A DNA stretch of 58,979 nucleotides. Origin: Methanothrix sp. GTDB taxonomy: Archaea > Halobacteriota > Methanosarcinia > Methanotrichales > Methanotrichaceae. Of the stretch, positions 43,153-58,377 are shown piece by piece (position 1 is the stretch's first letter; each line of letters opens with the position of its first letter). The stretch spans positions 1 through 58,979 of the forward strand of contig JAXGJB010000013.1 in NCBI GenBank assembly GCA_040770465.1, written 5' to 3'. The notes beneath the pieces were generated by a model. The model did not search any database. It saw nothing but the letters and a program-made list of their open reading frames with translations, and was not told where the DNA came from. The position numbers and the translations under genes were made by a program.

Positions 43153-43209
43153 GCGGATCGGGACGGAACGCCGGCGCGATCTCCGCTCCGCCCGAAAAAT
43201 GACCTTGCT

Positions 43210-43476
43210 TCAGGCTTTCTCTTCAGGAAGAGCGGAGACGTCCAAGAGGTCGGCAATGACATCTTCAACAAGATGCGATACGGACCGTCTTCTCTTATGA
43301 GCCAGCCTCTCCAGTTCGAAAAACGCCGGCTCCGGCAGCTCGACCAGCACTCGGCGCAGCTTCTCATCCCTCTCAAATCCCCGCCACCGGGCCTCAGATT
43401 CCTCTGCATCCTCGAAGGCGTCAGCAGCTGAAAGCACCTCTTCTTCGGGCTCGTGGGGCAAATACTTCTTCTTCAT
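43210..43476 (-). CDS. small RHH/CopG-like putative antitoxin
   Basis: VLVELPE..FFELERLA..RRRSVSHLV; overlaps the DUF3368 stop. Confidence 0.6.
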   Translation of the reverse strand: MKKKYLPHEPEEEVLSAADAFEDAEESEARWRGFERDEKLRRVLVELPEPAFFELERLAHKRRRSVSHLVEDVIADLLDVSALPEEKA

Positions 43477-44057
43477 CTTATGGCATCCTCAGATCGTCTT
43501 ACGAGATTGTCGTAGATCTCGTTTATAAACCTGGACGAATAATGCGTCCCCTGTCTCTGGCACTCCTCCAGCGCCCTCCGCAGATCCTCTGGCTCAATTA
43601 TCCGCTCCCGACAAGCTCGAATTAAGATGCCAGGAAATCCGATTACAGGCACTTTTCTTTGTTTGGCGACATCCCTTGCGGCCAGCTCATCGATGAGCAA
43701 TTCGACTGCCTGAGAGTTGCTCCGGAGCATCAACACAATTGCAAAGGACTCCGGAAGGTGATGGAGGGGATTTTTATCCCTGGAAATCCGATGGTTGGCG
43801 ATCTCGTCTGCTACAGCCCTGGCAGCATCGCATTCCTCTGGCGTGAAATCCTGGCAGATCACGATGAAACCCGCCTCCAATAGCTCGTTGATTTCAGCAT
43901 CTGCTCCATGCTTTTGATATTCGGGGATTTCGTCTGCAGGTATGAGCATCTGATCGTAGAACGATAGCAGAATGTGCATGCAATCGGATTGGAGGGCTGA
44001 AATCAGCGGACCTGTATTGCTGACGGCAACTCTTGGGCTCGATTGAGTCGTGGGCAT
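43473..44057 (-). CDS. DUF3368 / PIN-domain putative toxin
   Basis: VSNTGPLI, HLPESFAI, LLIDE.AAR.VA, G..GIL. Confidence 0.8.
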   Translation of the reverse strand: MPTTQSSPRVAVSNTGPLISALQSDCMHILLSFYDQMLIPADEIPEYQKHGADAEINELLEAGFIVICQDFTPEECDAARAVADEIANHRISRDKNPLHHLPESFAIVLMLRSNSQAVELLIDELAARDVAKQRKVPVIGFPGILIRACRERIIEPEDLRRALEECQRQGTHYSSRFINEIYDNLVRRSEDAIR

Positions 44058-44236
44058 TTGCTCAATTAAATGTAGACATCTTCCTATAAAAGATCATTTA
44101 TCGACCATCTCGGCAAAGATCTGCGCCGGACCGCTATCCATAATCGGCTGAATACCATTCGATGCCCCGGACCTTCGGAGCGCGGTGAAATCGCGACCTC
44201 GTCAAGCTTATATTCAATTGCTGTAAACACTACTCC

Positions 44237-44464
44237 ATGTCAACTTCGGTTTACAGCATCCGTCTGGAGAGCGAAGTCCGGCGGATGATGGACGAGATGA
44301 GCGAGGTCGACTGGCAGGCCGAGATCAGGAAGACGGTGGAGACGATGGTCCGGGAGAGAAAAAAGAGGATGCTCCTGGACCGGGCAGAAGCCCGCTGGAG
44401 TGAGCAGGTCGACGGCGCCGAGGGCGCGGCGTCGATGATAAGAGAGGACAGAGATGCGAGATGA
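44237..44464 (+). CDS. vapB: VapB-like antitoxin
   Basis: SVYSIRL...VDWQAEIRK...MIREDRDAR, overlaps the vapC start. Confidence 0.8.
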   Translation: MSTSVYSIRLESEVRRMMDEMSEVDWQAEIRKTVETMVRERKKRMLLDRAEARWSEQVDGAEGAASMIREDRDAR

Positions 44465-44889
44465 TATGCGAGATGAATATGCAAGATAAGGCCGTCCTCG
44501 ACTCCAGCGTCATCGCGGCCATCTTCTTTTTTGAGGAGGCTTCCGCCAGAGCGCTTGATATGGCGGACGGATGCGATCCCGTCACCCTGGACCTGGCGGT
44601 CCCAGAGGTGGGGAACGTGGCCTGGAAGCGGGTCGCGTTCTCCGGCGAGGACGAAGGAACGGCCATCGCCGCCCTGCGGGACTGCCTTGAGTTTGTCAGG
44701 GAAACCTGCGCCCTCCTCGAATCGGCTGACCTCCTGGAGGAGGCCTTCGAGATCGCAGTCCAGGATAAGGTATCAGTTTACGACTCCCTCTTCCTGGCGG
44801 CGGCAGAGAGCGAAGGCGCTCCGCTTCTGACCCTCGACAAGAAGCTGTATGAGAGGGTGAAAGAGAAGAGGGATGTGCGTCTCGTCTAG
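44461..44889 (+). CDS. vapC: VapC PIN-domain toxin
   Basis: VLDSSV, EVGNVAWK, SVYDSLFLA.A, LLTLD. Confidence 0.9.
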   Translation: MICEMNMQDKAVLDSSVIAAIFFFEEASARALDMADGCDPVTLDLAVPEVGNVAWKRVAFSGEDEGTAIAALRDCLEFVRETCALLESADLLEEAFEIAVQDKVSVYDSLFLAAAESEGAPLLTLDKKLYERVKEKRDVRLV

Positions 44890-44943
44890 CGTAGCGTCAT
44901 AGCCCCGGCGCCGTCGTGGTTGCGTTCAGCTGCTCGCTTTTTG

Positions 44944-44979
44944 CTATCCATGGCTGAAAAGCCGAGTCCCCATTGAAAC
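44944..44979 (+). CRISPR. orphan degenerate CRISPR repeat CTATCCATGGCTGAAAAGCCGAGTCCCCATTGAAAC
   Basis: 33/36 identical to the array repeat, 2.2 kb downstream of it. Confidence 0.9.
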
Positions 44980-45053
44980 AGCGCCCCTGGGGGCATTCTG
45001 CCGCCAGGGCCTCAGCAACAGGGCCTCAGCAACTTAAAAAATCCGAAAAGAAT

Positions 45054-46188
45054 GAGGATTTCGAAAAACCTAATTATCGTAATGTTTAAATAGTATTAAT
45101 TACAATTAATTGTTATGAATACTTTTTCGGCCTGGGCGTTCCGAGAAGTTTACAGTAAGCAGAAATCAGAGAACCGGCTCTTGCAGATAGTTGATATCAT
45201 AGACTGGAAACCTATTCGCGAGCTACTTGAGGAGATGTACCGGAACAAAAGCGAGAAAGGTGGGCGACCTAATTGCGACGTTCTGATGATGTTCAGGATT
45301 CTGATACTTGAGGAGTGGTACGGTCTAAGCGACCTTGAAGTTGTGAGACAGATCAAGGATCGTGTGTCGTTTATGGGATTTCTTGGTTTTCCGGAGCGGG
45401 TCCCTGATTCCAGCACGGTATGGCTGTTCAAGGAGCGGATGATAGAGACAGGAACGTACGATCGAGTCTGGGATGAATTCAGACATCAGTTGGATTCTAA
45501 GGGACTAATGGTGAAACGTGGAACAATCCAGGATGCTACATTCATTGAAGCTGATCCTGGTTCATCTAAAAAACCTCGTGGTGATCAAGCTAAAACTCGC
45601 CGAAGCAAAGATGGCACGTGGACAAAGAAGGGTGAAGAGCTTCACTTTGGGTATAAACTTCATTCTAAAGTAGATTTGGACTATGCACTTATCCGTGAGA
45701 TAGATACGACCACAGCAAAGGTCCACGATAGCAGAGTCGATCTTTCCGTTCCAGGAGAGGTGGTGCTTAGAGATAAGGGATATTTTGGGGTGCCTGCGAG
45801 GGGTGAAGATTTCACTATGAAGAGAAGGACGACGGAAAGACCGCTGGATGAACTCGAAAATGAACGGAATCGGCTGATAAGTAAGCTGAGATCACCTGGA
45901 GAAAGACCCTTCGCGGTTATAAAGCGAGTTTTTGGAGCAGGCAGGGTTCTGGTTACAACTATGAAAAGGGTTCATGGTAAAATGATAGTTGCAGCCATCG
46001 CGTATAATCTGTATCAGCTATACACACTAAAAAGAGCGGAGGTTATCTGAAGATAGCGGAAGCTATCTAAAATTGCTGAGAATTAGGCCAAATTAAGAAG
46101 ATATGGCGCGTGAGCGGGGCAAATATGACGCTGATAATTGGATTTGGGGACCAAAACGCGCTCTCTCAACCAGTAAATCGAAATCCTC
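45054..46188 (+). mobile_element. IS5-family insertion sequence (~1135 bp)
   Basis: 11-bp terminal inverted repeats GAGGATTTCGA (45054-45064) / TCGAAATCCTC (46178-46188); lower GC; no obvious target-site duplication. Confidence 0.8.
45115..46050 (+). CDS. IS5 family DDE transposase
   Basis: GGRP, LSD, PD.ST...F, IQDAT, FGYKLH, DKGY, R..GERPF..IKR, YNL. Confidence 0.93.
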   Translation: MNTFSAWAFREVYSKQKSENRLLQIVDIIDWKPIRELLEEMYRNKSEKGGRPNCDVLMMFRILILEEWYGLSDLEVVRQIKDRVSFMGFLGFPERVPDSSTVWLFKERMIETGTYDRVWDEFRHQLDSKGLMVKRGTIQDATFIEADPGSSKKPRGDQAKTRRSKDGTWTKKGEELHFGYKLHSKVDLDYALIREIDTTTAKVHDSRVDLSVPGEVVLRDKGYFGVPARGEDFTMKRRTTERPLDELENERNRLISKLRSPGERPFAVIKRVFGAGRVLVTTMKRVHGKMIVAAIAYNLYQLYTLKRAEVI

Positions 46189-46197
46189 GAATAATAA

Positions 46198-46734
46198 TTA
46201 TATTTTTTTAACCAGCTGTTCGGCGAGAGGCCCCATTCCAGCAGAAGACTTCTCCAGAGTGATGATATGCTTATATGTACCCTTTTCGAAGTTGAATACC
46301 TTCACCGGCACCCAGTTCTGGAGCCTTGAACCTATATAAATGGCGAGATCAACGGGTCCAGCATAGAAGAGGAGAACCTCCGTCGCCCCTCCTTCCAGAG
46401 CCATATCTTTAAAACCGTTTATCTTTGCCATCGCCTCGAGATAGTCCTTCGGCTCCAGCCAGTTCGCTCCACTCTTCCAGCTGAGGAGGGGGACATTTTC
46501 CCAGCCCCGTTCCTTCAAATAATTTCCGACGGTTGTATCCAGGTCTTTGCCGATGCCTATCGCCATGGCGAAAGGCTGTCTTGATAGCTCCACCTCCTTT
46601 CCTTCAAGAGAGACTATCATCCGGGCCAGCTCCTTCTTCTGCCTACGCAAGGTCAGGCTGAAGTATAGAAATAACGAAAAAGATATCAGCGTCGCAAAGC
46701 TGGCCATCAATGATACGATCCCGATCCAGGTCAT
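46198..46734 (-). CDS. membrane-anchored protein with a single SAVED/CARF-like nucleotide-sensor subdomain
   Basis: N-terminal TM helix (aa ~3-28), helical linker, then LLFYAGPVDLAIYIGSRLQN..PVKVFNF..GTY, matching the SAVED C-terminal motif. Confidence 0.7.
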   Translation of the reverse strand: MTWIGIVSLMASFATLISFSLFLYFSLTLRRQKKELARMIVSLEGKEVELSRQPFAMAIGIGKDLDTTVGNYLKERGWENVPLLSWKSGANWLEPKDYLEAMAKINGFKDMALEGGATEVLLFYAGPVDLAIYIGSRLQNWVPVKVFNFEKGTYKHIITLEKSSAGMGPLAEQLVKKI

Positions 46735-46807
46735 CCTGATCCCGCCTTTTCAGAGCTTCTCCTCTCGATCGCTCTATTGTTTATTATTGTTTATTATTGT
46801 TTCTCTT

Positions 46808-47107
46808 TTATTCTTCATAGAGCAGCACCATATCCTTCTCGACGCGAGGCCTGACGAAGGGGCTCAAGGCCCTCTCGCTGACGAGCTCAACCTCGCGCCC
46901 CAGAATCCGTGCCAGCTCCTCTTCGAGCCCGAACCACTTGAGGCCCAGGGGAGGCCTCTCGCCGGGTGGGAGCAGATCCACGAGTATATCGATGTCGCTA
47001 TCCTCCGTCTCATCGCCCCTGGCAAAGGAGCCGAAGACCGCGATCTTCTTCGCGTAGGGACGAAGCAATGGAACTATCTTCTGTTCAAGCTCGGCGAAAC
47101 GGTCCAT
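46808..47107 (-). CDS. minimal nucleotidyltransferase (MNT), no adjacent HEPN
   Basis: FGSFARGDETEDSDIDILV...LGREVELV. Confidence 0.9.
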   Translation of the reverse strand: MDRFAELEQKIVPLLRPYAKKIAVFGSFARGDETEDSDIDILVDLLPPGERPPLGLKWFGLEEELARILGREVELVSERALSPFVRPRVEKDMVLLYEE

Positions 47108-47133
47108 AAAGCCTCAAGCTGCTCATCGCTTAG

Positions 47134-47595
47134 CTATGACATACCCAGCTTTGCTTTTATCGCTCGAATATCCTGCTCCATCCGGAGGAGCCTATCTTCT
47201 CGGAGACTTTCGGCCGTCTCTCGGGTGTTGCTCTCGATCTCCTGAATGATGGGGATGGCCTTGACGATCTGGCCAGCGGTGAGGATCATGGCGAAATCGG
47301 TCATCTTTGGAACGAATCCGTCAAAGTCTCCGGCGAGAACCTCTGATACCTCCGCCTCTTCGGGCCAATTCATCTCCGCAAAGGCGGAAAAGGCTCTGAC
47401 CGCCTCCCTCGATCCTTCTACAATCACCAGCACCTTCTGCCGCCGATCTCTTCCCACCTGGTTTGAAGCAGCAAAGCCATCGATGCCCAAAAGCATGGCC
47501 TGGTTCATCAGGAGATATCTGTAGCCCACGCCGTGGACTTTTTGTCCGATGATCTCAATTTTCTCTTTTGTCCTCATCTCACTCATCATTTCCAT
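47134..47595 (-). CDS. acylphosphatase-domain protein with a C-terminal helical/coiled extension
   Basis: IIGQKVHGVGYR...GIDGF..N...V.VIVEG. Confidence 0.8.
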   Translation of the reverse strand: MEMMSEMRTKEKIEIIGQKVHGVGYRYLLMNQAMLLGIDGFAASNQVGRDRRQKVLVIVEGSREAVRAFSAFAEMNWPEEAEVSEVLAGDFDGFVPKMTDFAMILTAGQIVKAIPIIQEIESNTRETAESLREDRLLRMEQDIRAIKAKLGMS

Positions 47596-47738
47596 ATGCT
47601 CCCAGATTTGGCCTTATCTGTCATGCCGAGGAGATATCCCCCTGAGCGATCTGGCTGGCGGCAGGCTTTCGATTGTGGATGTAATCCCGAAATTCGCCTC
47701 TCTAAAGATGTTGACCGCCTAATATATATCGGTTTCAG

Positions 47739-48077
47739 TTAGACCAGGCCATCCGGCCTCGGGCCGCCTTTAAGAGGGCGGCTTGCATCGTCACGAGGCA
47801 ATGTCAAGTCCACCACCTGCCCCACCGCCCACACCCGGCTGTGGGTTGCGACCACCACCGCCCCGAGCCGGGGATCGTAGAAGGCGATCGCCGCCGCGGG
47901 CGATCCGTGGAGGAGGTGGAGCGCCATGCCGTACCGCCAGATGGGCGCTCGCCCCTCGACGACGACGAGGGACCCGCGGGGGATCTCCGGGAGGGGCGGC
48001 AGCGGCTCATTGGGGGTGATGGGGGCACAGACGCCGATGGGGTAGATGACGGTGGAATAGATGGCGGGGGCTGTCAT
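47739..48077 (-). CDS. csx3: Csx3 (Crn3) ring nuclease family protein
   Basis: VVVEGRAPIWRYGMALH..H...AFYDPRLGAVVVATHS. Confidence 0.88.
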   Translation of the reverse strand: MTAPAIYSTVIYPIGVCAPITPNEPLPPLPEIPRGSLVVVEGRAPIWRYGMALHLLHGSPAAAIAFYDPRLGAVVVATHSRVWAVGQVVDLTLPRDDASRPLKGGPRPDGLV

Positions 48078-48475
48078 CACTCTTCTCTCATTCCTCTCCA
48101 TTCCTCACTCAATGATCGCTCAGAAATTATCTGCTCGAGCTGGCCCGCCAGGTCCGGCAGGTGGACGGTGACGACCTCCCAGACGAGATCCTGTTTTATC
48201 GCTCCATAGTTATGAGCGAGAACATTCCTCTGGGCTATGATGCCCTTCCACGGAATTTCAGGGTGTTTCAGCTGAAGATCCATAGAGACGTTCCGTGCCG
48301 CTTCACCCATTATCTCCAATGCGCGCTCAACCGCCAGCTGAAGCTTTCTGTCGTTGAGATATGCATCAAAATCCGTTCCCTCAATGAAATCGAGGATCGC
48401 CGATGCAGCATCCAGCATATCCCAGATGTAAGCTGAATCTCGAGGTTCTCGATCTTCAGGCTCCATAGGCTCCAT
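48077..48475 (-). CDS. HEPN/DUF86 (HepT-like) RNase toxin
   Basis: AVER.LEI.GEAA, IPWK.I...RNVLAHNY. Confidence 0.9.
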   Translation of the reverse strand: MEPMEPEDREPRDSAYIWDMLDAASAILDFIEGTDFDAYLNDRKLQLAVERALEIMGEAARNVSMDLQLKHPEIPWKGIIAQRNVLAHNYGAIKQDLVWEVVTVHLPDLAGQLEQIISERSLSEEWRGMREE

Positions 48476-48767
48476 AGATTACCTCCATTCCGGCGAGAAT
48501 AGAGCGCCGCCGGTAGGGATTTCGAATCGACTCCCTATCCACCAGGTCTATCTCTCGGCCGGTTATCTTCTTCAATTCCTCGATCATTTCCACCCAGTCG
48601 AAGAGGGTCCATCGGGCTTGCTCGAAGAAGGTAACCAGAAAATCAACGTCGCTCTCCGGACCAAAATCTTCCCGGAGAACCGATCCGAAAATAGCCATCT
48701 CCTTTACCTTCCATCGACGGCAGAAGTCTTCAATCTTCTCCCTGGGTATGTCGATTCTGGATGGCAT
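48456..48767 (-). CDS. MNT antitoxin (MntA-like)
   Basis: FGSVLREDFGPESDVDFLV; overlaps the HEPN start. Confidence 0.9.
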   Translation of the reverse strand: MPSRIDIPREKIEDFCRRWKVKEMAIFGSVLREDFGPESDVDFLVTFFEQARWTLFDWVEMIEELKKITGREIDLVDRESIRNPYRRRSILAGMEVIYGAYGA

Positions 48768-48947
48768 AATTGAGATTCACCCCTCGACTTAGAAGGTATT
48801 TGTGCTCAAAGCGATAAAGATATGCCTTCAGCTTTCAGCCTTCGGATTCGAATTCGAATTCGGATTCGGATTGGCAGCCGAGAATCTCAGAACTGGAGAT
48901 GAAATGCTCGAATCTCAGAAGGCAGACGGGGGAGATCTCAATTTTGT

Positions 48948-49094
48948 TCATTCCTTGATCCTTCCCCCCTCGATCTGATCCAGCGTCACATCCACATCCA
49001 TCACATCTCCCACCGCCCGCTTTCGGCTGTGGACGGCGACCACCACCGTCCCGAGGCGGGGGGGGGAGGAAGGCGATCGCCGCCGCGGGCGATC
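48948..49094 (-). pseudogene. csx3: second, truncated and frameshifted csx3 copy (3' half)
   Basis: AAGGCGATCGCCGCCGCGGGCGATC identical to 47881-47905; encodes SPAAAIAF / RLGTVVVAVHS; +1 shift in a G9 tract (49058-49066). Confidence 0.8.
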
Positions 49095-49108
49095 TCTGGG
49101 TTGTCCGA

Positions 49109-49972
49109 TCAAGCTCTTAGTTTCCAGACACCAAACCTGTCCACTACTAGAGGGAGATCCTCACATGCTATGCTTCCAGGTGTAAAGCACACATCGCTGA
49201 ATCCAACATGCTGGCCTGCATAGCAGTTGCGTGGGTGATTCGATTGCCATTCACGACCCACCAACGGCTCGACATCACCGGCAACTGATAAGCCTTCGGC
49301 CACAGCATGGGCCAACAACCGTCCACCCTTCGGGAGATGAATGCTCGGTCGATCTCTTTCGCTGTCGAAGGTTGCCAAATCCCCGAACAAGTGTTTATCA
49401 GCATCTACTTCTTTGATTCCTACTAATTCCACATCGCCCCAGCCATATCCGCGCTCGCCGCCGAGTTGAAGGCGTCTGAATGCCTCCTGCCACTTGAGAG
49501 TGCATCCATCCTTTTCAAACACGTGTCCGGTCAAAAAGACAGGTTCGCCCGTATCCAACGTTCGTGGAGAGACGAATTCGACCTCGTGTAGAGATCCTTC
49601 GGTAGCCGACTGAGCAGGGTAGGATAGAGAAGTCCCGGCATAGCTGCTCAGAAAGCGGCGACGGAACACGCTTAAGTTCTCCCAAGGCCATTGAACAGAA
49701 TGGCTTTCGTGGCTGTTTGATTTCAGAGCAGGATAAAAGTAGGTAAAAGCTAAAAGTCTGTGGACTTGATCTCCGAACTGATGGTACTGCTGAGAGTTCG
49801 TTGCCGGGCCACGTCCATGATATGCGTCGCGCGTTAGTCGCATAGTCAGAGCGCCCCAAAGCGCTCGACCAGTTACGTAGGGACGAGTGCGCTGAAGATT
49901 GCCCACTTTGCTATGGCCGATGTGTAGCGGTGACCGCAGCCGCAAAACCACCAGATATGCCTGCCAGCTCAT
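49109..49972 (-). CDS. cmr3: type III-C Cas5-group RAMP (Cmr3-like)
   Basis: L.SPLHIG, GRALWGAL, LGGERGYGWG; last gene of the cmr1-6-10-4-5-3 order. Confidence 0.72.
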   Translation of the reverse strand: MSWQAYLVVLRLRSPLHIGHSKVGNLQRTRPYVTGRALWGALTMRLTRDAYHGRGPATNSQQYHQFGDQVHRLLAFTYFYPALKSNSHESHSVQWPWENLSVFRRRFLSSYAGTSLSYPAQSATEGSLHEVEFVSPRTLDTGEPVFLTGHVFEKDGCTLKWQEAFRRLQLGGERGYGWGDVELVGIKEVDADKHLFGDLATFDSERDRPSIHLPKGGRLLAHAVAEGLSVAGDVEPLVGREWQSNHPRNCYAGQHVGFSDVCFTPGSIACEDLPLVVDRFGVWKLRA

Positions 49973-49983
49973 GCAGATACTCC

Positions 49984-50388
49984 TCAACTGCGCGCTTTGG
50001 CCCCGTAACGGGCGTAAATTAACATTTGCTCAAGTGTCTCTTTCGCCAGCAACAGTCGCTCTAGACCGCCTTGCTTTGGATCACCCGATACTTTGTCAAT
50101 AATGTGTTGAAGGATCTGTTCCACACCGTTGCCGCTGGGCTTACCCCATCCAAAGCCGAGTCCCTCCAGTAAATTGAGCATCTCATCAACGACTACCCTG
50201 CCATTATCCTTTTCTTTCGCCAACAGATATAGGAAACAGGCATAGACGCCGTTTTCCTGCAGTACACCCAAGGTTTTTGTGACCGTATTATCAACTTCGC
50301 TTGCTTTTTTATTCTCCGTGCGGTGAATGATTTCTTGCGCATGTTTCGCTGCCAACCGGTCGAGGTTAATTTGGGCATTGCAAGTCAT
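49984..50388 (-). CDS. cmr5: type III-C small subunit Cas11 (Cmr5-like)
   Basis: helical 134 aa; LGVLQENGVYA...LEQMLIYARY.AKA; GGAGG SD. Confidence 0.78.
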   Translation of the reverse strand: MTCNAQINLDRLAAKHAQEIIHRTENKKASEVDNTVTKTLGVLQENGVYACFLYLLAKEKDNGRVVVDEMLNLLEGLGFGWGKPSGNGVEQILQHIIDKVSGDPKQGGLERLLLAKETLEQMLIYARYGAKARS

Positions 50389-50417
50389 TATTGAACCTCC
50401 TGAGCGATTTTTTGGTG

Positions 50418-51404
50418 CTACGAATCTATGCCGTATTCCTCTTCTATCGAGTCGCCGACAATAGCAATGCGGCCAAAACCGCGTGTACCCATTCCACCCA
50501 CACCCAGCCACTCTATCATCCGCAAACCATCTCTCACAACGTCCAATGGGCCTGACCATTTCGCGTTTCCTGGAAGTACATTCTTCTTTGCGGTTTGGCT
50601 TTGCGCATTTCCAATTAATGGCCAAGTTTCACGGTAGTCGTCCAGCATTACTTCGGCCGTCAGAAATGTAGCTCGGGGCAAAGCTTCGTAATTGAAGAGC
50701 GCCTTATCCTCGGCTGCGCCGCGCTCTGGATCAATCGCCACCGAGGTGCGAACCTCCAGATTGCTGTTGACAATGTGGCTGAAAAGTGTGTCGTTTACGA
50801 TGGCAATCTTATCCTTGATGATTTTCCAGCGCTGATCGTTTTGCCATTGCCCCGGAGCCTCAGTGGTTGCCTTTCCAGCTACGGTCACCATAAGCCAGCC
50901 CAGGTTGAGTGCATCCTGGCGGTCCCAGGTCAACATAGCAGCGCCAGAATCCGTCATTTCCGACAATTTCCTATTATCCTGCTCTTCAAACGTGAACCCT
51001 GCTTCTCTCAGGCGCTCCAGTGTGCTCACCCATACAGGTCCAGCCATGGAATACACAGGGAAAAGAACTACATGCGCATCAAAGATGTTGACCACGCCGG
51101 AATAGGCCTTCGTTTCATCGCTGTCCTGTTTTTTCTTGATATAACCAAAGGTGTAACAGACAGGGTTTTTATCCGGGTCCGCCACTTTGTCCTGACTCTG
51201 CCCGGCGGCCTCAGGCGTCTCGTAAAGCTGGGCTGTGTAGGAACGCACTGCTCCATGCAGGCTGGTGCCTGGAATTTTAGGTATGCGTGTGCCAGGCTCC
51301 CTCACAATGCTGTTATCCACCCGCCCAAGGCGGTAGCCGCCGGTGCCGATATGCGCCGGATCGAGTGTCATTAACAAATAGCGTTGCCGCTTGTAGGTTG
51401 CCAT
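50418..51404 (-). CDS. cmr4: type III Cas7 backbone Cmr4
   Basis: HIGTG...VDNSIVRE...PKIPGTSL.G, VLFPV.S, LFNYE.LP, GVGG..TRGFG; catalytic Asp present. Confidence 0.92.
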   Translation of the reverse strand: MATYKRQRYLLMTLDPAHIGTGGYRLGRVDNSIVREPGTRIPKIPGTSLHGAVRSYTAQLYETPEAAGQSQDKVADPDKNPVCYTFGYIKKKQDSDETKAYSGVVNIFDAHVVLFPVYSMAGPVWVSTLERLREAGFTFEEQDNRKLSEMTDSGAAMLTWDRQDALNLGWLMVTVAGKATTEAPGQWQNDQRWKIIKDKIAIVNDTLFSHIVNSNLEVRTSVAIDPERGAAEDKALFNYEALPRATFLTAEVMLDDYRETWPLIGNAQSQTAKKNVLPGNAKWSGPLDVVRDGLRMIEWLGVGGMGTRGFGRIAIVGDSIEEEYGIDS

Positions 51405-51414
51405 ATATGCCCTC

Positions 51415-54186
51415 CTATTCCTTCATAATCTCCATGTGAAGTTCTGCCCAATCGGTCAATTCACCGGATACACCGGCTTCCACCAACAGTTTTCGATCAT
51501 CTTCCGAAATAGCGATCCATCCCTGCCCTTTCGGCCATGAAGCACCGGCCAGCGTGTCAGCTACAAACTGCCGGAATATCTCGTCGTCTACCGACTCGCC
51601 ATCAACATCCTGCCCATACCACGTCTCGCGTGTAGCTTCTATTGTGTGGATGGTCTGATAGCGTTGGCTTTTAGCTAGGCGCCTCATGTATTCCCAGAGT
51701 TTTTCCAAACGGTCGAGGTCTTCCAAGTAAAAAGGCCGCGTTCGACGCGGACGCTGGCCATCGGCATCGTAATGGATGTCAAAGCGGCGAGCGGTGGTGT
51801 CAAGAAACTCGAAGTCGAAGGTGGATGGCCATATCTTGATCGTTTCGCCGACCTTCAAGTCAGCGGCATGGACAATCCATCTATCGGCATTGTCTCCTTT
51901 TTCTGTTAGGATTGTGACTTTAACCGCGCGACGGCTTGAAGCATCTCCCTTACTGTCGTCACCTTCTGTATCCAAAAAGAGATAAGGATACCATTGATCG
52001 TTGGGCACACGCCACCGTATTTGGTAGCTATTCCGCTCAAGTTCTAGCGTTATCGGTGCTTTTTCGTCGCTCGTTTTTCTGATATCCCATGATTGTTGCC
52101 GCGATGGGTAATTGAGCATCGCCCGGCCAGCATCGAGCACGGCGCGAATCGGCGTGCGGCGAGGAGCAAAGACTAAACCCAAATGCAAGGGCAGTCGGTC
52201 GCGCACTTTTCCCATTTCGGCTTCGTACTTCGTCTTGATGGTTTCGGCTATCTTGAGAGCTGTATCAGCCGGAACGACCATCATAAATTTGCGCGGCTCG
52301 GCAAGAATTGGTATGGCCGCAGCATATGGGATTTGTTGCCAGTCAGCGCCTGTAATTCGACAATCTGCCAGCAAATTACGGCTGCGCTGGCCTTCCAATG
52401 CATCAGAATTTCGCAAGATCGGTTGGCGATTGTTAATCACAAACTGCGCATTTAAGTTATCGCTAACGAAAATGGCAGATGCTGCCGGGTCGATGTATAC
52501 GATTGATTCCGCGCCCAATTGGCGCGCAATGTAGCCTAAATTGTCAGCGGTAATCAAGTAGCCATTATTGCTATCTTGAGGCGGAACCCAGACCACACTA
52601 AGGTTTGTTGCACCCAAATCGAGGTCATACACATGATAAGGTTCTAGATTGGGGATGGTGCTTAGAATGATTTTGATCCGGCGGCGTCCATCAGCCAGTT
52701 GGCGCAAAATATCATCTTGTGACCTCTGCCAGAATAAACGCGTGGTCTCCCAAATGCGCCTGAGTCGGCTGAATGAGGGAGCTTTGCTAGTAACTGGTTT
52801 GCCATCAGTATTCAGTGGGTCGTGAGGGGCGATCAACAACAACGATTTCAGCATGCTTCCATCTAGCCAATGGGTCAGCTCAAACCGCCCCACCAGCAAT
52901 GCCAAGCGTCCATTTGTGTCGGCGACTTCATCGGTCCAAATAGTTTTGTCTGGTTCTGTGGTTGCCCATTTCTTTGATCTATCATCCCGTCGTTCCTCAC
53001 AAATATCACACACGTTGCGCTTGCTAGCCTTCTTCTCCGGGCCTTTTGGACGCAACCCGCATACGGTGCAGATGTCATCAGGCTCGCGATCTTTCCAGAA
53101 CTGGTCAATGCTAGCGGCATTGGCAGGTGAACTCATCTCGGTGGATATGAAGCTACTAATGTTTGGCAGTATGTCGTTAGATTTTGTAGATGTTTTCCGC
53201 CAATTGGGATCCTGCCCCCACCATGAGGTTGATTCGAGTTCTATATGCGGTGTAATTTCCCCGCCGAGCTGAAGCTTGGGATTATCTTTCAATCTCCCGT
53301 GTTCAAAGGCTTGCAGAATTAGCGTGATCAAGTTTGTTCCTGAGCCATTGGATATTTGAAGCAAGTCAGCAATATCAGGTACGACATAAACGCTGCCGTT
53401 TTCATCTCGATACACTTCGCTGCCTAGAGGATAGGTTATCTCGATAAGATCACGTACATTGTTGAGCCCATCAGAAAGTAATTCTTGCCTTGCCAACAGA
53501 TCTGGTATGCGTGCTACATTGAAGAGATAATCGAGACCATTCACACGAATGCCCAAAAGCCGCCAACGAAGATCAGGAGCATCCAGCGTTCTACCCATCA
53601 GTAGCGATCCAGCTAGCGCAGACTTGTACAAAGCACCCACCAACAAACCCCAGTTCCATAGGTCTACTTCGTTGATGGGGCGGCGTGTGTCGGCAACGGT
53701 TTTAGAAAACAGTTCACTTACGGTTTTTCGCAGATCTTGTCGTTCGGAAGCAGTATAGCTCGTTAGCTTGTCCCAAGGCAGGTTCCAAAGAGACCCGGTG
53801 AGACCGGACGGAATATTCCCTTCGAAGCCGAAGGAGGTGCTTATTCGAATATCAGCACTTTTTCTAGTCTTATCAACAGGATTTTGCTTATCAAAATGAG
53901 CAGTGTTATGGCAACGGGATAAATAGCTTAACAGATTAGTAACATTTCGGTCTTTAGCTTTTCCCCTCCAACTATTGAGCAATTCGTTGATTGACACGGT
54001 TTGAGCGTGCAGAGTGAGATTAAGTGAACTAAGAGAGGGATATTTAGTCGTTAATTCTTTAGGTTCCGGTAATTTTCCACCAAATATTTTTCCATCTGAG
54101 CATTTTTTATAATCGTGCAACCATCCGATCGCTTCTGCAAGCAAGAGTGCATCGCGCTTCATCGCTAAATCATCAAGCTGAGTCAT
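51415..54186 (-). CDS. cas10: type III-C Cas10 (Csx11-like): HD domain and Zn finger, degenerate Palm, no GGDD
   Basis: GWLHDYKK, DTRRPINEV.LW, CTVC...CDIC..RR, PSFSRLRRIWET, EMGKVRDRLP; alternative GTG start at 54204. Confidence 0.88.
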   Translation of the reverse strand: MTQLDDLAMKRDALLLAEAIGWLHDYKKCSDGKIFGGKLPEPKELTTKYPSLSSLNLTLHAQTVSINELLNSWRGKAKDRNVTNLLSYLSRCHNTAHFDKQNPVDKTRKSADIRISTSFGFEGNIPSGLTGSLWNLPWDKLTSYTASERQDLRKTVSELFSKTVADTRRPINEVDLWNWGLLVGALYKSALAGSLLMGRTLDAPDLRWRLLGIRVNGLDYLFNVARIPDLLARQELLSDGLNNVRDLIEITYPLGSEVYRDENGSVYVVPDIADLLQISNGSGTNLITLILQAFEHGRLKDNPKLQLGGEITPHIELESTSWWGQDPNWRKTSTKSNDILPNISSFISTEMSSPANAASIDQFWKDREPDDICTVCGLRPKGPEKKASKRNVCDICEERRDDRSKKWATTEPDKTIWTDEVADTNGRLALLVGRFELTHWLDGSMLKSLLLIAPHDPLNTDGKPVTSKAPSFSRLRRIWETTRLFWQRSQDDILRQLADGRRRIKIILSTIPNLEPYHVYDLDLGATNLSVVWVPPQDSNNGYLITADNLGYIARQLGAESIVYIDPAASAIFVSDNLNAQFVINNRQPILRNSDALEGQRSRNLLADCRITGADWQQIPYAAAIPILAEPRKFMMVVPADTALKIAETIKTKYEAEMGKVRDRLPLHLGLVFAPRRTPIRAVLDAGRAMLNYPSRQQSWDIRKTSDEKAPITLELERNSYQIRWRVPNDQWYPYLFLDTEGDDSKGDASSRRAVKVTILTEKGDNADRWIVHAADLKVGETIKIWPSTFDFEFLDTTARRFDIHYDADGQRPRRTRPFYLEDLDRLEKLWEYMRRLAKSQRYQTIHTIEATRETWYGQDVDGESVDDEIFRQFVADTLAGASWPKGQGWIAISEDDRKLLVEAGVSGELTDWAELHMEIMKE

Positions 54187-54200
54187 CTTTCTCTCCCTCC

Positions 54201-55274
54201 TCACCTCAACTGCTCAGCTAGGTAAGGCTCCAGTTCTTCGCAGAGTTTGTTCAAGCTATTGAATGAGTATTCTGAAAAGTAAACAATTTTGGCTGCTGGC
54301 TTTGAGATTTTGCCGTCCAATTTCGCTCTGATGGCCATTTTGCCCTCCTCCACCAATTGATCCTCCGCTGTCCCGAATCCACTGCTGGTCTTTGCGCCGA
54401 AGCCGTTGATGGTGAGCATCTCACGAATGCCTTTTGCAAGCACCTGCAAATCCTCAGCTACTTCAGCACGTATGGCCTCGTCCGTCTGCCCTATAGGGCC
54501 AAAGGGTACGTAGATTAAGATGAACTCTCCCCTCGCTCCTTGCGGCACGCACTCCAATAGGATCGGCCCACGTACACCGATGCCGGTTTTGCGGTCGTGG
54601 GGGTTGATGACCTCTAGACTAATATCTTCGAAGAAGGTGGGGAAGAAATGCAAGCGTCCAGCTTGCTGTTCTTCGCTCTCACGCTTATTGCCCAGAAGGC
54701 GAATGGTGACCTTATCATCTTGCTTATAGCCCAACTGCCACAAAGCAGCACGCAAAGAGCCCTTCCAACTCGTCGCCGCAACCATCGGCGTTTGAAAGAC
54801 TTTTTCTTTGCGCAGCGGGTTATCGAGAAGGTTAAAGTCCCTTTCATCTTTGCTAAGGTAGGATTTCCGCAAGCAGAAGGGAATACGAAGCATAAAGCTC
54901 AAAGGCGGCATGTAATCGACAACCGATGTTTCGGGGAGAAAGTGGAACTCTGGTGGAATAGAACTGATAGTCAATTTTTCAAGCCAGGCATCGCGGATAA
55001 CTTCGTCAAGCTTAGAATTGCAGGCCTTAAACCAAAGATAAGCCAGGTGGGGCTCGATCATAACGGCCTTGTCAGCAGCCTGCTCCATTTCTTCTTTAGC
55101 CTTAATGATAGCGTCTTTGGCCTCCTTGACAGCATTTTTACGTTTCTGTTGGTCACGGATCTTTTTCGCATGATTCAACTGCCAATTTGCTTGTTTTTGT
55201 CGCTCTTCAGCCCCCACAAGCTCGCTCAGGATATCGTTCAATTGCATTTGCTGGAAGCTGTAGTATTCACGCAT
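54201..55274 (-). CDS. cmr6: type III-C Cas7-group RAMP Cmr6
   Basis: SWKGSLR, GRLHFFPTFF, VINPHDRKT, PI..E.VP.G, GFGAKTSSGFG. Confidence 0.82.
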   Translation of the reverse strand: MREYYSFQQMQLNDILSELVGAEERQKQANWQLNHAKKIRDQQKRKNAVKEAKDAIIKAKEEMEQAADKAVMIEPHLAYLWFKACNSKLDEVIRDAWLEKLTISSIPPEFHFLPETSVVDYMPPLSFMLRIPFCLRKSYLSKDERDFNLLDNPLRKEKVFQTPMVAATSWKGSLRAALWQLGYKQDDKVTIRLLGNKRESEEQQAGRLHFFPTFFEDISLEVINPHDRKTGIGVRGPILLECVPQGARGEFILIYVPFGPIGQTDEAIRAEVAEDLQVLAKGIREMLTINGFGAKTSSGFGTAEDQLVEEGKMAIRAKLDGKISKPAAKIVYFSEYSFNSLNKLCEELEPYLAEQLR

Positions 55275-56289
55275 TAGGATCTTCCTCCAATCCCAAAAGA
55301 GTCCGCAAAAACACGTTTACATCGTTGTTGTCTCGGATAACGGTATCACGAGCTGAATTCATCTCTCGCCAGACCTGGATATTGTATTTTTCTCTCAAGG
55401 TCAAGTAGATAGCCTGCACGATAGCATTCCGATTTTCAAAATTCTGGGCGCTTGGTAGTTCTTTCGGAATCCATCCCCAAACCCGCATCTCATTGTTGCT
55501 ATTGTATGGGCGGGACATCTTAACCTTCGCAGCTATCCGCTCATTCCTGTTTGTTGTGCCCATAACGAAGTGGCGCAATTTCGTGTCGTTCTCATCCTCA
55601 AACAGCCGCCGCAAGTCGTACTTCAAGTTGAACGTTTCATTTTCGTCGAAAGGCCTCCCATCCTTAGAAGAAACGCGCGCCAGAAAGACGTTTTGCAGGG
55701 AAGGTAATTCTGGATCCTGAGGATTGCTTGCAACTGTTTGTAGCCGATTATAGAGCGGTTGGGTGTCAACTCTGCCGTTTGCAAGTTCAATGACCCCAAA
55801 ACCCATTTGCACCCGCGCGCCGATCCCAGCCCAATCAGCGATGAACTGAACAAGGCCAGCAACGACTTCTGGACGGAAATCCGTCGCCAAGCTTTGGATC
55901 TGTATCGTAAGCTTGCCTGAGCGTGGTTTGTCATTTAGTTTTGCTGGAAAATACCATTTAGACGTGTGTCTGGTCTTCCAGATTTGAACATTTTTAACTC
56001 GTCCGTCTGGATACAAGCCTGTATCCCGAATAACCAATCGAAACCTGCGCTTCCAACCGGTGGCTCCAAAGACCCGACAGACGTCGCACAGGCCCTCATG
56101 GTCCTTTTCTTCGTCAAAGGCACAATCTGCCTTACTTGGATCACATGCATCTCCACCCAGGCCCCGAACAATGACCTCATACCACCAGCGCATACTACCG
56201 ATTATGCCTGTTTCGTGGATGCGATCCACTTTGCCCGCTTGCACCCCGCCAGTCCATAGAGGCGTAAGAGTTTGAATTCTAACATCCAT
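55267..56289 (-). CDS. cmr1: type III-B/C RAMP Cmr1
   Basis: TLTPLWTGG, ETGIIGSMRWWYE, C.VC.VFGATG, GIGAR..GFG; start reassigned to ATG 56289. Confidence 0.9.
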   Translation of the reverse strand: MDVRIQTLTPLWTGGVQAGKVDRIHETGIIGSMRWWYEVIVRGLGGDACDPSKADCAFDEEKDHEGLCDVCRVFGATGWKRRFRLVIRDTGLYPDGRVKNVQIWKTRHTSKWYFPAKLNDKPRSGKLTIQIQSLATDFRPEVVAGLVQFIADWAGIGARVQMGFGVIELANGRVDTQPLYNRLQTVASNPQDPELPSLQNVFLARVSSKDGRPFDENETFNLKYDLRRLFEDENDTKLRHFVMGTTNRNERIAAKVKMSRPYNSNNEMRVWGWIPKELPSAQNFENRNAIVQAIYLTLREKYNIQVWREMNSARDTVIRDNNDVNVFLRTLLGLEEDPNA

Positions 56290-56324
56290 AATAATTTCCT
56301 GCCATATAGTCGATCTCCATCCAC

Positions 56325-56525
56325 AAACCCCCCCATCCCGAAGTGTGCCCCGCGCCCCAGCGCCACCGGCCCCCGGACGGATTCTGCAAACTCGATCCGG
56401 AAGCCGTACCCGGCGGACCCCGCCCGTCGCCACAGGTTCGCGCCCTCCGGAAGCTCGACCAGCCGACCCTCTCCCCGGCGATCTCGGTGGAGGTGACCGG
56501 CTCGACGGCCTCCAGGAATCCTGCG
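56325..56525 (-). pseudogene. csb2: diverged duplicate of the csb2 3' end (Cas6 glycine loop), frameshifted
   Basis: aligns by eye with ~57394-57605; 7-bp deletion in the GDGRRAG segment. Confidence 0.85.
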
Positions 56526-56550: not shown

Positions 56551-56892
56551 TCAGGTCACCTCCTTCCAGGGGTCCCAGTAAATGTGAACCAGCACATTTC
56601 GAAATCCAGCCAGGTCGGAGAGGTCTGCCGCCAGATCCCCGGATATCAATCCGGCCTGGGCGAGAATCTCAAAGCCCTCCCGGTAGGTCGCAGGTCTCCG
56701 CAGGCCGTCTTGCGATATCAGATGGGTGCAGATGTCTATTGCCGCCTGAATGCTGACCAGCATGGCATGCAATATCATATTCCTCCTGTCCCTGTCCCTG
56801 TCCTTCCTGAGATCCTCCAGAGGATACTGCTGATACCTTTCCCAGTCCTTCAAGGATTCATCCAGCTCTCTCAGATGCAATAACACTCGCAT
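56551..56892 (-). CDS. HEPN/DUF86 toxin, apparently lacking the last helix
   Basis: IQAAIDICTH, P.TYRE.F..L, AGFRNVLVHIY, then an abrupt end. Confidence 0.8.
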   Translation of the reverse strand: MRVLLHLRELDESLKDWERYQQYPLEDLRKDRDRDRRNMILHAMLVSIQAAIDICTHLISQDGLRRPATYREGFEILAQAGLISGDLAADLSDLAGFRNVLVHIYWDPWKEVT

Positions 56893-56897
56893 TTTAG

Positions 56898-57302
56898 TTA
56901 GGTCCTCGCCAGAAAGGCTTGATCAAGATATTCGTACATATACCTCAGGTCCAGGTATTCAGAGATGAGGTGGGCCTCATAGTTCACTCTCTCCACCTCC
57001 CCTCGTTGCAGTACCACTGTTCCCTTGCTGATCACCTCGTACTGGAAATAAACGGGAGCATAGTTGAGGACCCTGACATCAAATTCAAACCTGGGCTCAA
57101 TTCCCTCTTCAAGAGCCCTGGCCGTTCTTTGAGAAAGCTTGAACCTTTGATAAGGAGCCAGTTCCTTGCCCAGATGGACGGCCACATCAATATCGTGAAA
57201 GTCCTCTCTATCCAAAAAAGATCCGAAAACGTAGGCAAGGTCGATCTCCTTGAATCCTCTCAGGATAGAAGAGATGCACTTAAGAACTTCGGCCCTTTCC
57301 AT
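56898..57302 (-). CDS. MNT antitoxin (MntA-like)
   Basis: AYVFGSFL...DIDVAV...DVRVLN.AP..FQYEVI..G. Confidence 0.9.
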   Translation of the reverse strand: MERAEVLKCISSILRGFKEIDLAYVFGSFLDREDFHDIDVAVHLGKELAPYQRFKLSQRTARALEEGIEPRFEFDVRVLNYAPVYFQYEVISKGTVVLQRGEVERVNYEAHLISEYLDLRYMYEYLDQAFLART

Positions 57303-57342
57303 CTGACAATCCTCCTTATCCTTCTTCTGAGCAATTGCACAT

Positions 57343-58377
57343 TCAAATGATAATACTTTTTCCTAGATCGATGTATCTGGGCTCCACTGCCTTAAACCCC
57401 CCCATCCCGAAGTGCGCCCCGTACCCCAGCGCCACCGGCCCCCGGATGGATTCTGCAAACTCGATCCGAAAGCCGTACCCGGCCGACCCCGCCCTTCTCC
57501 CGTCGCCGCAGGTTCGCGCCCTCCGGAAGCTCGACCAGCTGACCCTCTCCCCGGCGATCTCGGTGAAGGATACCGGCTCTACGGCCACCGGCTCTGGAAA
57601 CCCGGCGAGGTCGAGGAGCCTTCGAAGCTCGTGCTCGGGGCTTCCGATCTGGATGCCGCTTGCGGGGTCGATCTTCGGCACACCCGCCCGGGTCGCCTTG
57701 GGGTGTCTTGTGGGGATGAAGGGCGTCCGCGAGACCCACGACCGGGACTCTGCCAGGAGGGGGGACTCGCCCCTGGCGGCATCGGTCCCGCCGAAGTTCT
57801 CAGGGCGGCCCAGGCCCGAAAGGGCGAGCTGGAGATCGAGCCCCGAGCCTCCGACCTCCCGGAGGGCCTCCAGGGCTCCGATCTCCCGGGAGCCGAAGCC
57901 CGCGGGCGCGTAGACGGTGACGGAGGTGACCTCGCCGCCCATGCCGCGGCCCAGGGCCTGAACCGACTCGGGGAGGATGAAGGCGTGAATGTGTCCCGAG
58001 AGCGGCCTTCGGTCATCGTCGCAGCCGGTGAAGGTCGCCGAGCCGTCCGACAGTTCGACGAGGGCGGCGTGGACCCGCTCCGCGAGGGTGATGGCGTCGA
58101 CGAGCCTCGGGGCTGGCCGGCTGCCGAATAGGAAGAACCTCGCCACCGTGGGGCGGCCCGTCGCCGCCGCCCTGCGGCGGAGATGGCCAGGGGCATATCG
58201 GCGCGCGCGGCGGCGTCCCAAATCATCGAAGACGGGGAGCTTCGCCATCGAAGGAGGGGCTACTCTATCTTCAAAAGAACGGCTGGTATCGACAGCTTCA
58301 AGCTCCTCTTCCGTCTCTAGGAACTTGGATAATCTCGCCTCTGCACCAGGTCCGGATGAACTCAATCTCCCCTCCAA
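57343..58377 (-). CDS. csb2: type I-G Csb2, C-terminal Cas6 domain only (N-terminal Cas5 part missing)
   Basis: LAERVHAAL, GHIHAFILP, WVSRTPF, GYGFRIEF...GPVALGYGAHFGMGGF; first ~70 aa of the ORF look non-homologous. Confidence 0.8.
   Translation of the reverse strand: MEGRLSSSGPGAEARLSKFLETEEELEAVDTSRSFEDRVAPPSMAKLPVFDDLGRRRARRYAPGHLRRRAAATGRPTVARFFLFGSRPAPRLVDAITLAERVHAALVELSDGSATFTGCDDDRRPLSGHIHAFILPESVQALGRGMGGEVTSVTVYAPAGFGSREIGALEALREVGGSGLDLQLALSGLGRPENFGGTDAARGESPLLAESRSWVSRTPFIPTRHPKATRAGVPKIDPASGIQIGSPEHELRRLLDLAGFPEPVAVEPVSFTEIAGERVSWSSFRRARTCGDGRRAGSAGYGFRIEFAESIRGPVALGYGAHFGMGGFKAVEPRYIDLGKSIII

Follow-up and report, generated by a model that had tools for sequence, protein, structure and literature searches.

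Probable replacement of a cyclase-active type III-B module by a type III-C cassette that stranded csx3 and a TM-half-SAVED gene in a Methanothrix-like archaeon

The stretch of DNA analyzed here (the window) is a whole contig of 58,979 bp, C13, from a Methanothrix sp. genome of 2.54 Mb (66 contigs, 94.85% complete). Its CRISPR locus, from a Methanothrix-like archaeon, is a composite of type I-G and type III. Here a type III-C effector module, whose Cas10 lacks the GGDD cyclase motif, is followed by genes typical of cyclic oligoadenylate (cOA) signaling, namely the ring-nuclease gene csx3 and a gene for a protein with one transmembrane (TM) helix and half a SAVED domain (TM-half-SAVED). The six III-C genes, cmr1-cmr6-cas10c-cmr4-cmr5-cmr3, form a cassette of 7.2 kb (window ~49095–56311), and they and the accessory genes lie on the minus strand throughout. 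In related loci the same slot is occupied by a type III-B module. Very probably the III-C cassette replaced an HD-less, cyclase-active III-B module in place and left csx3 and TM-half-SAVED stranded. An earlier note on this DNA, made from its sequence alone, had listed among three explanations that the accessory genes were orphaned when III-C replaced another module. This explanation is now strongly supported, with the replaced module being an HD-less GGDD III-B and the breakpoints placed within a few bases.

The comparison with contigs L052 and L053 carries most of the argument. Their TM-half-SAVED proteins are 98% identical to that of the window. Their DNA is 96% identical over 1897 nt to window 48056–46189, which comprises csx3 from codon 16, an acylphosphatase-like gene, a nucleotidyltransferase gene (MNT2) and the TM-half-SAVED gene. 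Farther downstream, window 41201–36739 matches L053 at 96% over 4464 nt, and 41201–39707 matches L052 at 94% over 1495 nt. The upstream anchor of the slot is the gene for Csb2, the type I-G Cas5/6 protein (57343–58377, minus strand; TIGR02165 82.7 bits, PADLOC Cas56g 162.5 bits), whose 3′ end is 95% identical between L053 and the window. Csb2 is also found upstream of III-B in L040, L046, L053, L055, L057, and L067. Between these flanks L052 and L053 carry not III-C but cmr1-cas10b-cmr3-cmr4-cmr5-cmr6, with GGDD in Cas10b.

Both breakpoints can be placed by pairwise alignment. On the left, the homology to L057 and L053 extends across a second copy of the Csb2 3′ end and is lost at ~56311, 22 nt upstream of the cmr1 ATG. 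On the right, homology to csx3, from about codon 65 onward, starts 14 nt after the cmr3 stop codon at 49109–49111. The csx3 remnant that lies there, directly after cmr3 (~48948–49095, minus strand), gives a weak Cas_csx3 match at 48999–49061. Its DNA aligns with csx3 of L055 and L053 and with the window's own intact csx3, which it also resembles as a peptide, and an extra C breaks its frame. In L055 the order is csx3-MNT1-HEPN1-csx3 with both csx3 copies whole, and this region is 84% identical to window 49094–47753 over 1343 nt. The 5′ half of one csx3 was thus lost because the edge of the incoming cassette cuts the gene. Since csx3 is truncated at the cassette edge and every informative relative has III-B, the exchange went from III-B to III-C. 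The two csx3 copies counted in the earlier note are accordingly one intact gene (48101–47739) and one 5′-truncated, frameshifted remnant (~49095–48948).

The pair of csx3 and TM-half-SAVED belongs with III-B. Species-representative genomes were scanned with an alignment of the TM-half-SAVED family, which gave 13 loci; in seven of them the homologue of TM-half-SAVED is immediately preceded by csx3. PADLOC was run on 117 of 215 greedily chosen open reading frames (ORFs) of at least 85 aa, those nearest to the TM-half-SAVED match. III-B with Cas10b was found in 7/13 loci (L040, L043, L044, L046, L048, L049, and L051) and III-A in one (L050); five show no type III genes, four of these being contigs shorter than 10 kb. 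A metagenome scan with the window's TM-half-SAVED protein gave 12 loci, of which six have III-B upstream, none has III-C, and the other six lie on contigs too short to tell. The order in Methanothrix and Methanosarcinales is Csb2, cmr1, cas10b, cmr3, cmr4, cmr5, cmr6, a CARF nuclease (Csx1/Can2-like), csx3, TM-half-SAVED, Cas4-Cas1, and Cas2. The same-genus genome G303 (L067) shows Csb2, III-B, csx3, SAVED, a long array, and cas2/cas1. The SAVED gene of G303 (L067 9372–9939) is frameshifted at the GGK site; its III-B, including a Cas10b with GGDD, and its csx3 look intact.

GGDD is kept in 11/11 Cas10b proteins as well as in that of G303 (for example YSGGDDVLAFLP), and the HD motif is absent from the first 120 residues in nine of the 11. 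Csx3 and TM-half-SAVED are an accessory pair of HD-less, signaling-only III-B. A Can2/Csx1-like CARF nuclease follows III-B in L040, L043, L054, and L057, and other CARF-type proteins are present in L044 and L055. The Csx3, Crn2, and Can2/Csx1 families are specific for cyclic tetra-adenylate (cA4), and the company of Csx3, a Crn2-like protein, and Can2/Csx1-like nucleases suggests that cA4 is also the ligand of TM-half-SAVED. The Crn2-like protein is found in the Chloroflexota III-B locus L048, in which an ORF at 9666–9986 resembling STIV_B116/DUF1874 directly precedes TM-half-SAVED. The match, to the family of Crn2 and AcrIII-1, has an E of 4e-5 and does not reach the Pfam cut-off; a different ring nuclease may thus stand there in the position of csx3.

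The window resembles the HD-less III-B loci (L040, L043, L044, L052, L053, L055, L057, and G303/L067) in the slot between Csb2 and the array, in csx3, TM-half-SAVED, and the CRISPR repeat, and in flanks that are up to 96% identical in DNA. It differs from them in the module itself, which in these loci is cmr1-cas10b-cmr3-cmr4-cmr5-cmr6 with GGDD present, and in the loss of all their CARF-type genes.

The cassette is a complete III-C effector module, encoded on the minus strand. The cmr1 gene (55267–56289) matches TIGR01894 Cmr1 (86 bits), Pfam RAMPs, and PADLOC Cmr1. Its true ATG is at 56289, giving the N-terminus MDVRIQTLTPLWTGG; a longer ORF from a GTG at 56433 crosses the duplicated Csb2 3′ end. 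It is followed by cmr6 (54201–55274; PADLOC Cmr6 251 bits, Pfam RAMPs), cas10c of the Csx11 family (51415–54204; TIGR02682 455.6 bits, cut-off 248.95; PADLOC Cas10c 771.7 bits along the full model), cmr4 (50418–51404; TIGR02580 112.9 bits, cut-off 87), the small-subunit gene cmr5 (~49984–50373, residues 85–212 of the ORF 50625–49984; PADLOC Cmr5 146.6 bits, III-C small-subunit model 117 bits), and cmr3 (49109–49987; PADLOC Cmr3 282.5 bits). The gene order given in the earlier note is borne out by Pfam, NCBIfam, and PADLOC, and its end coordinate of 56289 is the cmr1 ATG. In alignment with the solved Cmr4 9arw_C, Cmr4 of the window keeps the Asp of the VD..I.RE motif (GRVDNSIVRE versus GNVDLPIQRE), which we take to be the catalytic residue of Cmr4.

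In Cas10c the HD motif, WLHDYKK, lies near residue 30, and a CxxC...CxxC zinc finger spans residues 379–402. Where the Palm2 GGDD is expected, residues 633–647 read ILAEPRKFMMVVPAD (633–645, ILAEPRKFMMVVP), with AEPRKFMMVVP occupying the GGDD site, and Pfam Palm2 matches residues 640–700. An alignment of 15 Cas10c proteins from the phylum shows no GGDD at this site in any of them, while P637 and P645 do not vary; 12 retain the HD dipeptide, and the four zinc-finger cysteines vary little or not at all. A profile of these 15 proteins reaches solved Csm1 weakly (E 0.21), in an alignment that pairs the HD motif, the zinc finger, and the post-GGDD strand with their Csm1 counterparts. A search of solved structures with the single Cas10c sequence gave chance matches only and was set aside. 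Motif context, the Palm2 match, and the family alignment support the placement of the GGDD site, and the Palm2 cyclase site is predicted to be inactivated. The earlier description of a Cas10 with HD and zinc finger and no GGDD thus holds in both the translation and the family alignment.

The linkage of III-C with csx3 and TM-half-SAVED is not recurrent. PADLOC found Cas10c in 18 of 401 genomes of the phylum, the window's genome included, and in neither of the two same-genus genomes sampled among the 401. We compared 16 III-C loci of up to 20 kb each from 16 of the 17 other genomes; a short fragment in G105 was left out, and one of the 16 loci is a contig of 2.8 kb. The order cmr1-cmr6-cas10-cmr4-cmr5-cmr3 is identical in the 12 complete related loci. 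Searches with phmmer using the window's csx3, SAVED, and acylphosphatase-like proteins found no match in the 16 loci, and Pfam, at E of at most 1e-4, found neither Cas_csx3 nor SAVED among their 234 flanking ORFs (greedy, non-overlapping, at least 60 aa, cmr genes excluded). The recurrent co-occurrence of csx3 or TM-SAVED with III-C, for which the earlier note had proposed to look, was thus seen in 0/16 other III-C loci. The only cOA-related neighbors found were Csa3 (L036) and a CAP12/Pycsar-type TIR gene (L035). The latter, in genome G248, encodes a 299-aa protein (L035 13907–14803, minus strand), is convergent on cmr3, and is the only effector-like neighbor seen at the other III-C modules. 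These modules lie inside type I loci (Cas6, Cas7, Cas5, Cas3, Cas1/2/4). Toxin-antitoxin pairs lie between cmr6 and cas10c in four III-C loci (L026 11512–13043, L033 6879–8383, L031 12028–12339, and L036 7546–8261); inserted MNT/HEPN pairs are seen in L031, L033, and L036, and AbiEi/AbiEii separates cmr6 from cas10c in L026 and L033.

These results agree with the general picture of III-C, for which section 16 of PMC11229360 gives no known effectors, and which together with III-F has very few ring nucleases according to a preprint (bioRxiv 10.1101/2024.09.24.614671). A locus without cOA sensors and ring nucleases is a typical, though not a defining, trait of III-C, and the window departs from it because of the module swap. 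It shares with type III-C the Cas10c/Csx11 family, the six-gene order (Cmr1, 6, 4, 5, 3 around Cas10c), the replaced GGDD, and the HD and zinc-finger motifs; like most relatives it lies inside a type I locus and lacks a dedicated cas6. It differs in that a ring nuclease and a membrane sensor of the cOA type stand beside its module, as in none of the 16 others, and in that the closest Cas10c found is 37–38% identical.

Both orphans are intact. The csx3/crn3 gene (47739–48101, minus strand) encodes 120 aa and scores above the curated cut-offs of Pfam PF09620 (73.7 bits, cut-off 21) and TIGR02579 (57 bits, cut-off 55.4). In the alignment to 6vjg_A, its H62, H65, D76, R78, and H87 correspond to H57, H60, D69, R71, and H80 of Archaeoglobus fulgidus Csx3, with a 6-residue offset of the chain numbering deduced from residue spacing. 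These five residues of the A. fulgidus protein are described as essential or absolutely conserved in PMC7371418. The likeness to Crn3/Csx3 of A. fulgidus (AF_1864; PDB 6vjg, 3wzi) thus extends from the profile scores to all five residues, and the Mn-dependent cleavage of cA4 that marks these enzymes would be expected of the window's protein. The differences are that no cyclase was found in the assembled genome to provide the substrate and that the second copy is truncated.

The TM-half-SAVED gene (46198–46734, minus strand) encodes 178 aa, with a single N-terminal TM helix and a half-SAVED domain (Pfam PF18145 27.7 bits, cut-off 26.2; NF033611 35 bits, cut-off 33). The PF18145 match covers profile positions 142–190 only and the NF033611 match positions 169–260; the PADLOC model SAVED4--SAVED is matched in full. 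A family search gave 35 matches, mostly of 171–192 aa, with source names of Methanothrix and a few others; three of 112–113 aa look like fragments. The window's protein is full length for the family. In the AF2 model (mean predicted local distance difference test score, pLDDT, 72.6), a long N-terminal helix of residues 3–44 precedes an alpha/beta domain. The top Foldseek matches, with E from 6e-5 to 1e-2 and ~117–135 aligned columns, are the SAVED domains of Cap4, SAVED-CHAT, TIR-SAVED, CalpL, and a ring nuclease of viral origin. The cytoplasmic part of ~125 residues amounts to one CARF-like lobe rather than the two fused lobes of SAVED, and the models suggest that the half-SAVED works like a CARF-type half and would have to oligomerize.

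A two-copy model of residues 48–178 supports such a homodimer. It predicts a symmetric pair joined through helix 128–138, with a score of 0.71 against 0.00 for the best of three controls, at least 76% agreement of contacts between runs, and partner pLDDT of at least 80. The calibration of this score, in which 20/30 solved homo-pairs and 1/23 single chains reach the mark, applies only roughly, since the alignment used was our own, and since solved CARF/SAVED assemblies exist, the pass may reflect likeness to them. The membrane cOA effectors Cam1, Csx23, Cap1, and Chp1 combine a TM segment with a small domain that binds cA4. TM-half-SAVED shares with these proteins an N-terminal TM helix joined to a small cytoplasmic domain of the nucleotide-sensor type; its genes adjoin, within type III loci, those of ring nucleases for cA4 and of CARF nucleases of the cA4 type. 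It differs from them in having a SAVED lobe instead of a CARF, CARFL, or Csx23 fold, and a single TM helix. We found no experiments on the TM-half-SAVED family in the literature searched, and treat the protein as a putative membrane effector.

One account of the present locus is the most likely. The III-C complex would use CRISPR RNAs of shared I-G-type arrays, cleave target RNA by Cmr4, and act through the HD domain of Cas10c without making cOA. With the arrival of the cassette the III-B genes were lost, as was any CARF nuclease gene behind them, and one csx3 lost its 5′ half. Csx3, as a cA4 ring nuclease, and TM-half-SAVED, as a cA4-gated membrane effector acting as a dimer or higher oligomer, would then be left without their cognate signal, as recent orphans that will idle or decay. 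They are probably signal-less leftovers of a recent swap. This account of present function, covering both the III-C mechanism and the idle orphans, is held less firmly than the history of the locus.

The orphans could still have a signal from elsewhere. The earlier note had proposed cross-talk with a III-A/B/D system elsewhere. On this view csx3 and TM-half-SAVED would still be in use, served by a cyclase-active type III system or another source of cA4 located on unassembled DNA, a plasmid, or a provirus. The incompleteness and fragmentation of the assembly leave room for it, as do the intactness and low dN/dS of the two genes, the other CRISPR arrays on contigs C22, C25, and C32, and the TM-half-SAVED gene of L046, which lies ~4 kb from its III-B module and does not abut it. 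Searches of the assembled genome speak against it. They found no Csm1 and no Cmr2; the PADLOC Cas10 model, which scores 178–360 bits on the Cas10b of relatives, matched nothing but the Palm2 remnant of the window itself; neither III-B proteins nor a Can2-like protein turned up with tblastn; no CARF-PDDEXK was found; and RAMPs and SAVED occur at this locus only. A weak SMODS match on contig C14 was considered as a CD-NTase and rejected, as it is a CCA-adding enzyme. No second cas10, with or without GGDD, no RAMP outside this locus, and no CD-NTase was thus found in the assembly, and the slot of the relatives' III-B is itself occupied by III-C; we regard cross-talk as quite unlikely. Very unlikely is the remaining proposal of the earlier note, non-canonical signaling through a product of Cas10c or an adjacent MNT. 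TM-half-SAVED would then be the sensor of this messenger, and Csx3 would break it down. The accessory genes do follow the III-C operon closely and in the same orientation, and the region has three nucleotidyltransferases of the Pol-beta type. Yet no sensor or ring nuclease accompanies any of the 16 other III-C modules, the GGDD site is replaced in 15/15 Cas10c, and the literature cited above on III-C effectors and ring nucleases points the same way. The MNTs match MntA antitoxin-type models, mostly have HEPN partners, and vary in place and number among relatives, and the same csx3-acylphosphatase-MNT2-SAVED block stands behind a normal GGDD III-B in L052 and L053. Non-canonical signaling is not needed to explain the locus. 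On a further reading, the swap would be adaptive: within the species, type III immunity would have changed from reliance on signals to reliance on the HD nuclease, for instance under pressure from viral ring nucleases, with csx3 and TM-half-SAVED still under selection and answering cA4 from co-resident mobile elements, an unassembled second system, or an unrecognized III-C-linked product. We consider this reading unlikely.

The history itself has two rivals. In the opposite direction, III-C with csx3 and SAVED would be ancestral and the relatives would have swapped in III-B. A swap alone gives no direction, and III-C and III-B are similar in GC. However, III-B fills the slot of all informative relatives, be they contigs of 96% identity or members of other orders and phyla, and the csx3 copy interrupted by the edge of the cassette is complete in L055, a truncation such as an incoming III-C would leave, which makes the opposite direction highly improbable. 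The other rival is an assembly artefact, that is, a III-C cassette from another organism wrongly joined to Methanothrix-like flanks. The contig does come from a metagenome assembly, and the depth in run X1 is 13.7 over the cassette and 23–36 over the accessory block; this difference fits co-resident strains with a common accessory block. A single X1 contig of 7644 nt covers 48733–56376, crossing both junctions, with 0 differences; X1 is perhaps the source sample, hence not independent. A contig of 803 nt from X5, a crude-oil metagenome of another study, covers cmr3 (49087–49729) with 16 differences and continues into csx3 at 47871. It skips 1215 nt, so that MNT1-HEPN1 and the 5′ part of csx3 seem to be missing, and it bridges from cmr3 to csx3 sequence in a different study. 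An artefact is extremely improbable. The replacement of III-B by III-C, with its breakpoints and direction, stands.

Several points weigh against this replacement and its stranded genes as we read them, or against parts of it. The search for a donor of the cassette gave nothing close, the nearest Cas10c in species-representative genomes being 37–38% identical. The GC of the cassette is 0.497 against 0.574 for the genome; low GC was dropped as a sign of foreign origin, since the relatives' III-B modules have similarly low values (0.48–0.50). Viral contigs scanned with the Cas10c alignment gave no relative and no lead to a viral carrier. The two orphans are still intact in the window, with dN/dS (ratio of nonsynonymous to synonymous rates) relative to L053 of 0.23 for csx3 and 0.09 for SAVED, at a synonymous divergence (dS) of ~0.1; MNT2 was omitted from this calculation (gaps), and the acylphosphatase-like gene has no synonymous differences. 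These low values span the whole divergence from L053 and neither show nor exclude continued selection. The III-C-csx3 junction occurs in a second study at ~97.5% identity, so the swapped form has persisted and spread somewhat. With the genome 94.85% complete in 66 contigs, a cyclase-active system could lie on unassembled or unbinned DNA. The action of the HD nuclease, the cleavage of RNA, and the cA4 ligand are parts of the account that we infer.

The locus is a clear, base-resolved instance of known module shuffling and not a new kind of system. It gives a rare exception among III-C loci a concrete cause, a cyclase-dead cassette in a III-B slot within a species-level lineage, and it warns that such co-occurrences should not be taken as evidence of new signaling chemistry. 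The window and L052/L053 form a natural before-and-after pair for what is gained and lost when cOA signaling is given up. The uncharacterized single-TM half-SAVED family, as a regular partner of Csx3 and HD-less III-B, is a candidate membrane effector.

The genes downstream of cmr3 that the earlier note had listed are all present on the minus strand, in the corrected order csx3 remnant, MNT1, HEPN1, csx3, acylphosphatase-like gene, MNT2, and TM-half-SAVED. MNT1 (48456–48767), an MntA-like nucleotidyltransferase, scores 67.4 bits with Pfam NTP_transf_2 and 43.2 bits with NCBIfam MntA (cut-off 60). The HepT-like HEPN1 (48077–48475) scores 91.3 bits with Pfam HepT-like and 42.4 bits with NCBIfam HepT (cut-off 60). 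The solo MNT2 (46808–47107) scores 50.9 bits with NCBIfam (cut-off 60); its HEPN partner, found in L054, L055, L059, and L060, is absent in the window. All MNT and HEPN proteins of the region match their Pfam domains. The acylphosphatase-like gene (47134–47595) encodes 153 aa with a helical C-terminal tail. Its protein scores 37.6 bits with Pfam Acylphosphatase (cut-off 22.5) and at best 33 bits with the NCBIfam acylphosphatase equivalogs (cut-off 100); on these scores the likeness appears to be one of fold only, and the protein is not predicted to be a signaling component. It differs from that of L053 at one position in 153 codons, at a dS of ~0.1 for the neighboring genes. The acylphosphatase-like gene and MNT2 lie between csx3 and SAVED in the window, L052, and L053. 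In G303, MNT1, the acylphosphatase-like gene, and MNT2 are contiguous and away from the csx3-SAVED site (L067 1–1190). The acylphosphatase-like gene may be the partner of the solo MNT.

Upstream of the cassette, a type VII toxin-antitoxin-like pair (56551–57302, minus strand) consists of MNT0 (57302–56898; MntA 57.9 bits, cut-off 60) and HEPN0 (56892–56551; HepT 89.1 bits, cut-off 60). The pair is also found upstream of III-B in L057, and the insert is absent in L053. The direct duplicate of the Csb2 3′ end, through which the left-edge homology runs, lies at 56321–56483 (minus strand), is by alignment a copy of 57389–57559, and ends at the left breakpoint. The pair is bracketed by this direct duplication of ~165 bp, and L057 is arranged alike. 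This arrangement suggests that a toxin-antitoxin pair, MNT0-HEPN0, was inserted and a long stretch of the target duplicated.

On the other side of the locus, an IS5 insertion (45053–46188, plus strand; transposase 45115–46050, NCBIfam IS5 222 bits) sits between the TM-half-SAVED stop codon and the first repeat of the CRISPR array. Alignment of the flanks shows that L052 and L053, the contigs of 96% identity, lack it. In runs X1 and X4 it is covered ~10 times as deeply as the neighboring sequence, so that it is multi-copy or common to several organisms. One X1 contig that jumps from 56570 to 57382, without MNT0-HEPN0, a joint in the read alignments that skips IS5 (with 21 letters on a side), and gaps in the coverage of the window by X5 and X6 carry low weight and hint at co-resident variants.

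The remains of the CRISPR array (42557–44980, minus strand) are 2.5 repeats at 42557–42740 and one at 44944–44980, with small ORFs and a VapBC pair (44237–44889) between them; at the corresponding place L057 and G303/L067 have arrays of ~20–40 repeats. A truncated cas1 (41226–41921), of which only profile positions 106–282 are left, is followed by cas2 (41926–42222) on the plus strand. This cas1 abuts an aldehyde dehydrogenase gene, and the adaptation side is degraded. The truncated cas1, the tiny interrupted array, IS5, and the three MNT/HEPN-type insertions fit a decaying, recombining defense island.

Further CRISPR arrays of the genome lie at C22 10933–12347, C32 5415–6608, and C25 18689–21474. 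The C22 and C32 repeats have the same 5′ half as that of the window, and C22 begins with a repeat of the window type. The C25 repeat is unrelated and ends in ATTGAAAC, with a distant cas1 nearby. Window 24720–24894 is a perfect tandem array of a 15-nt unit, with 11.7 copies at 100% identity.

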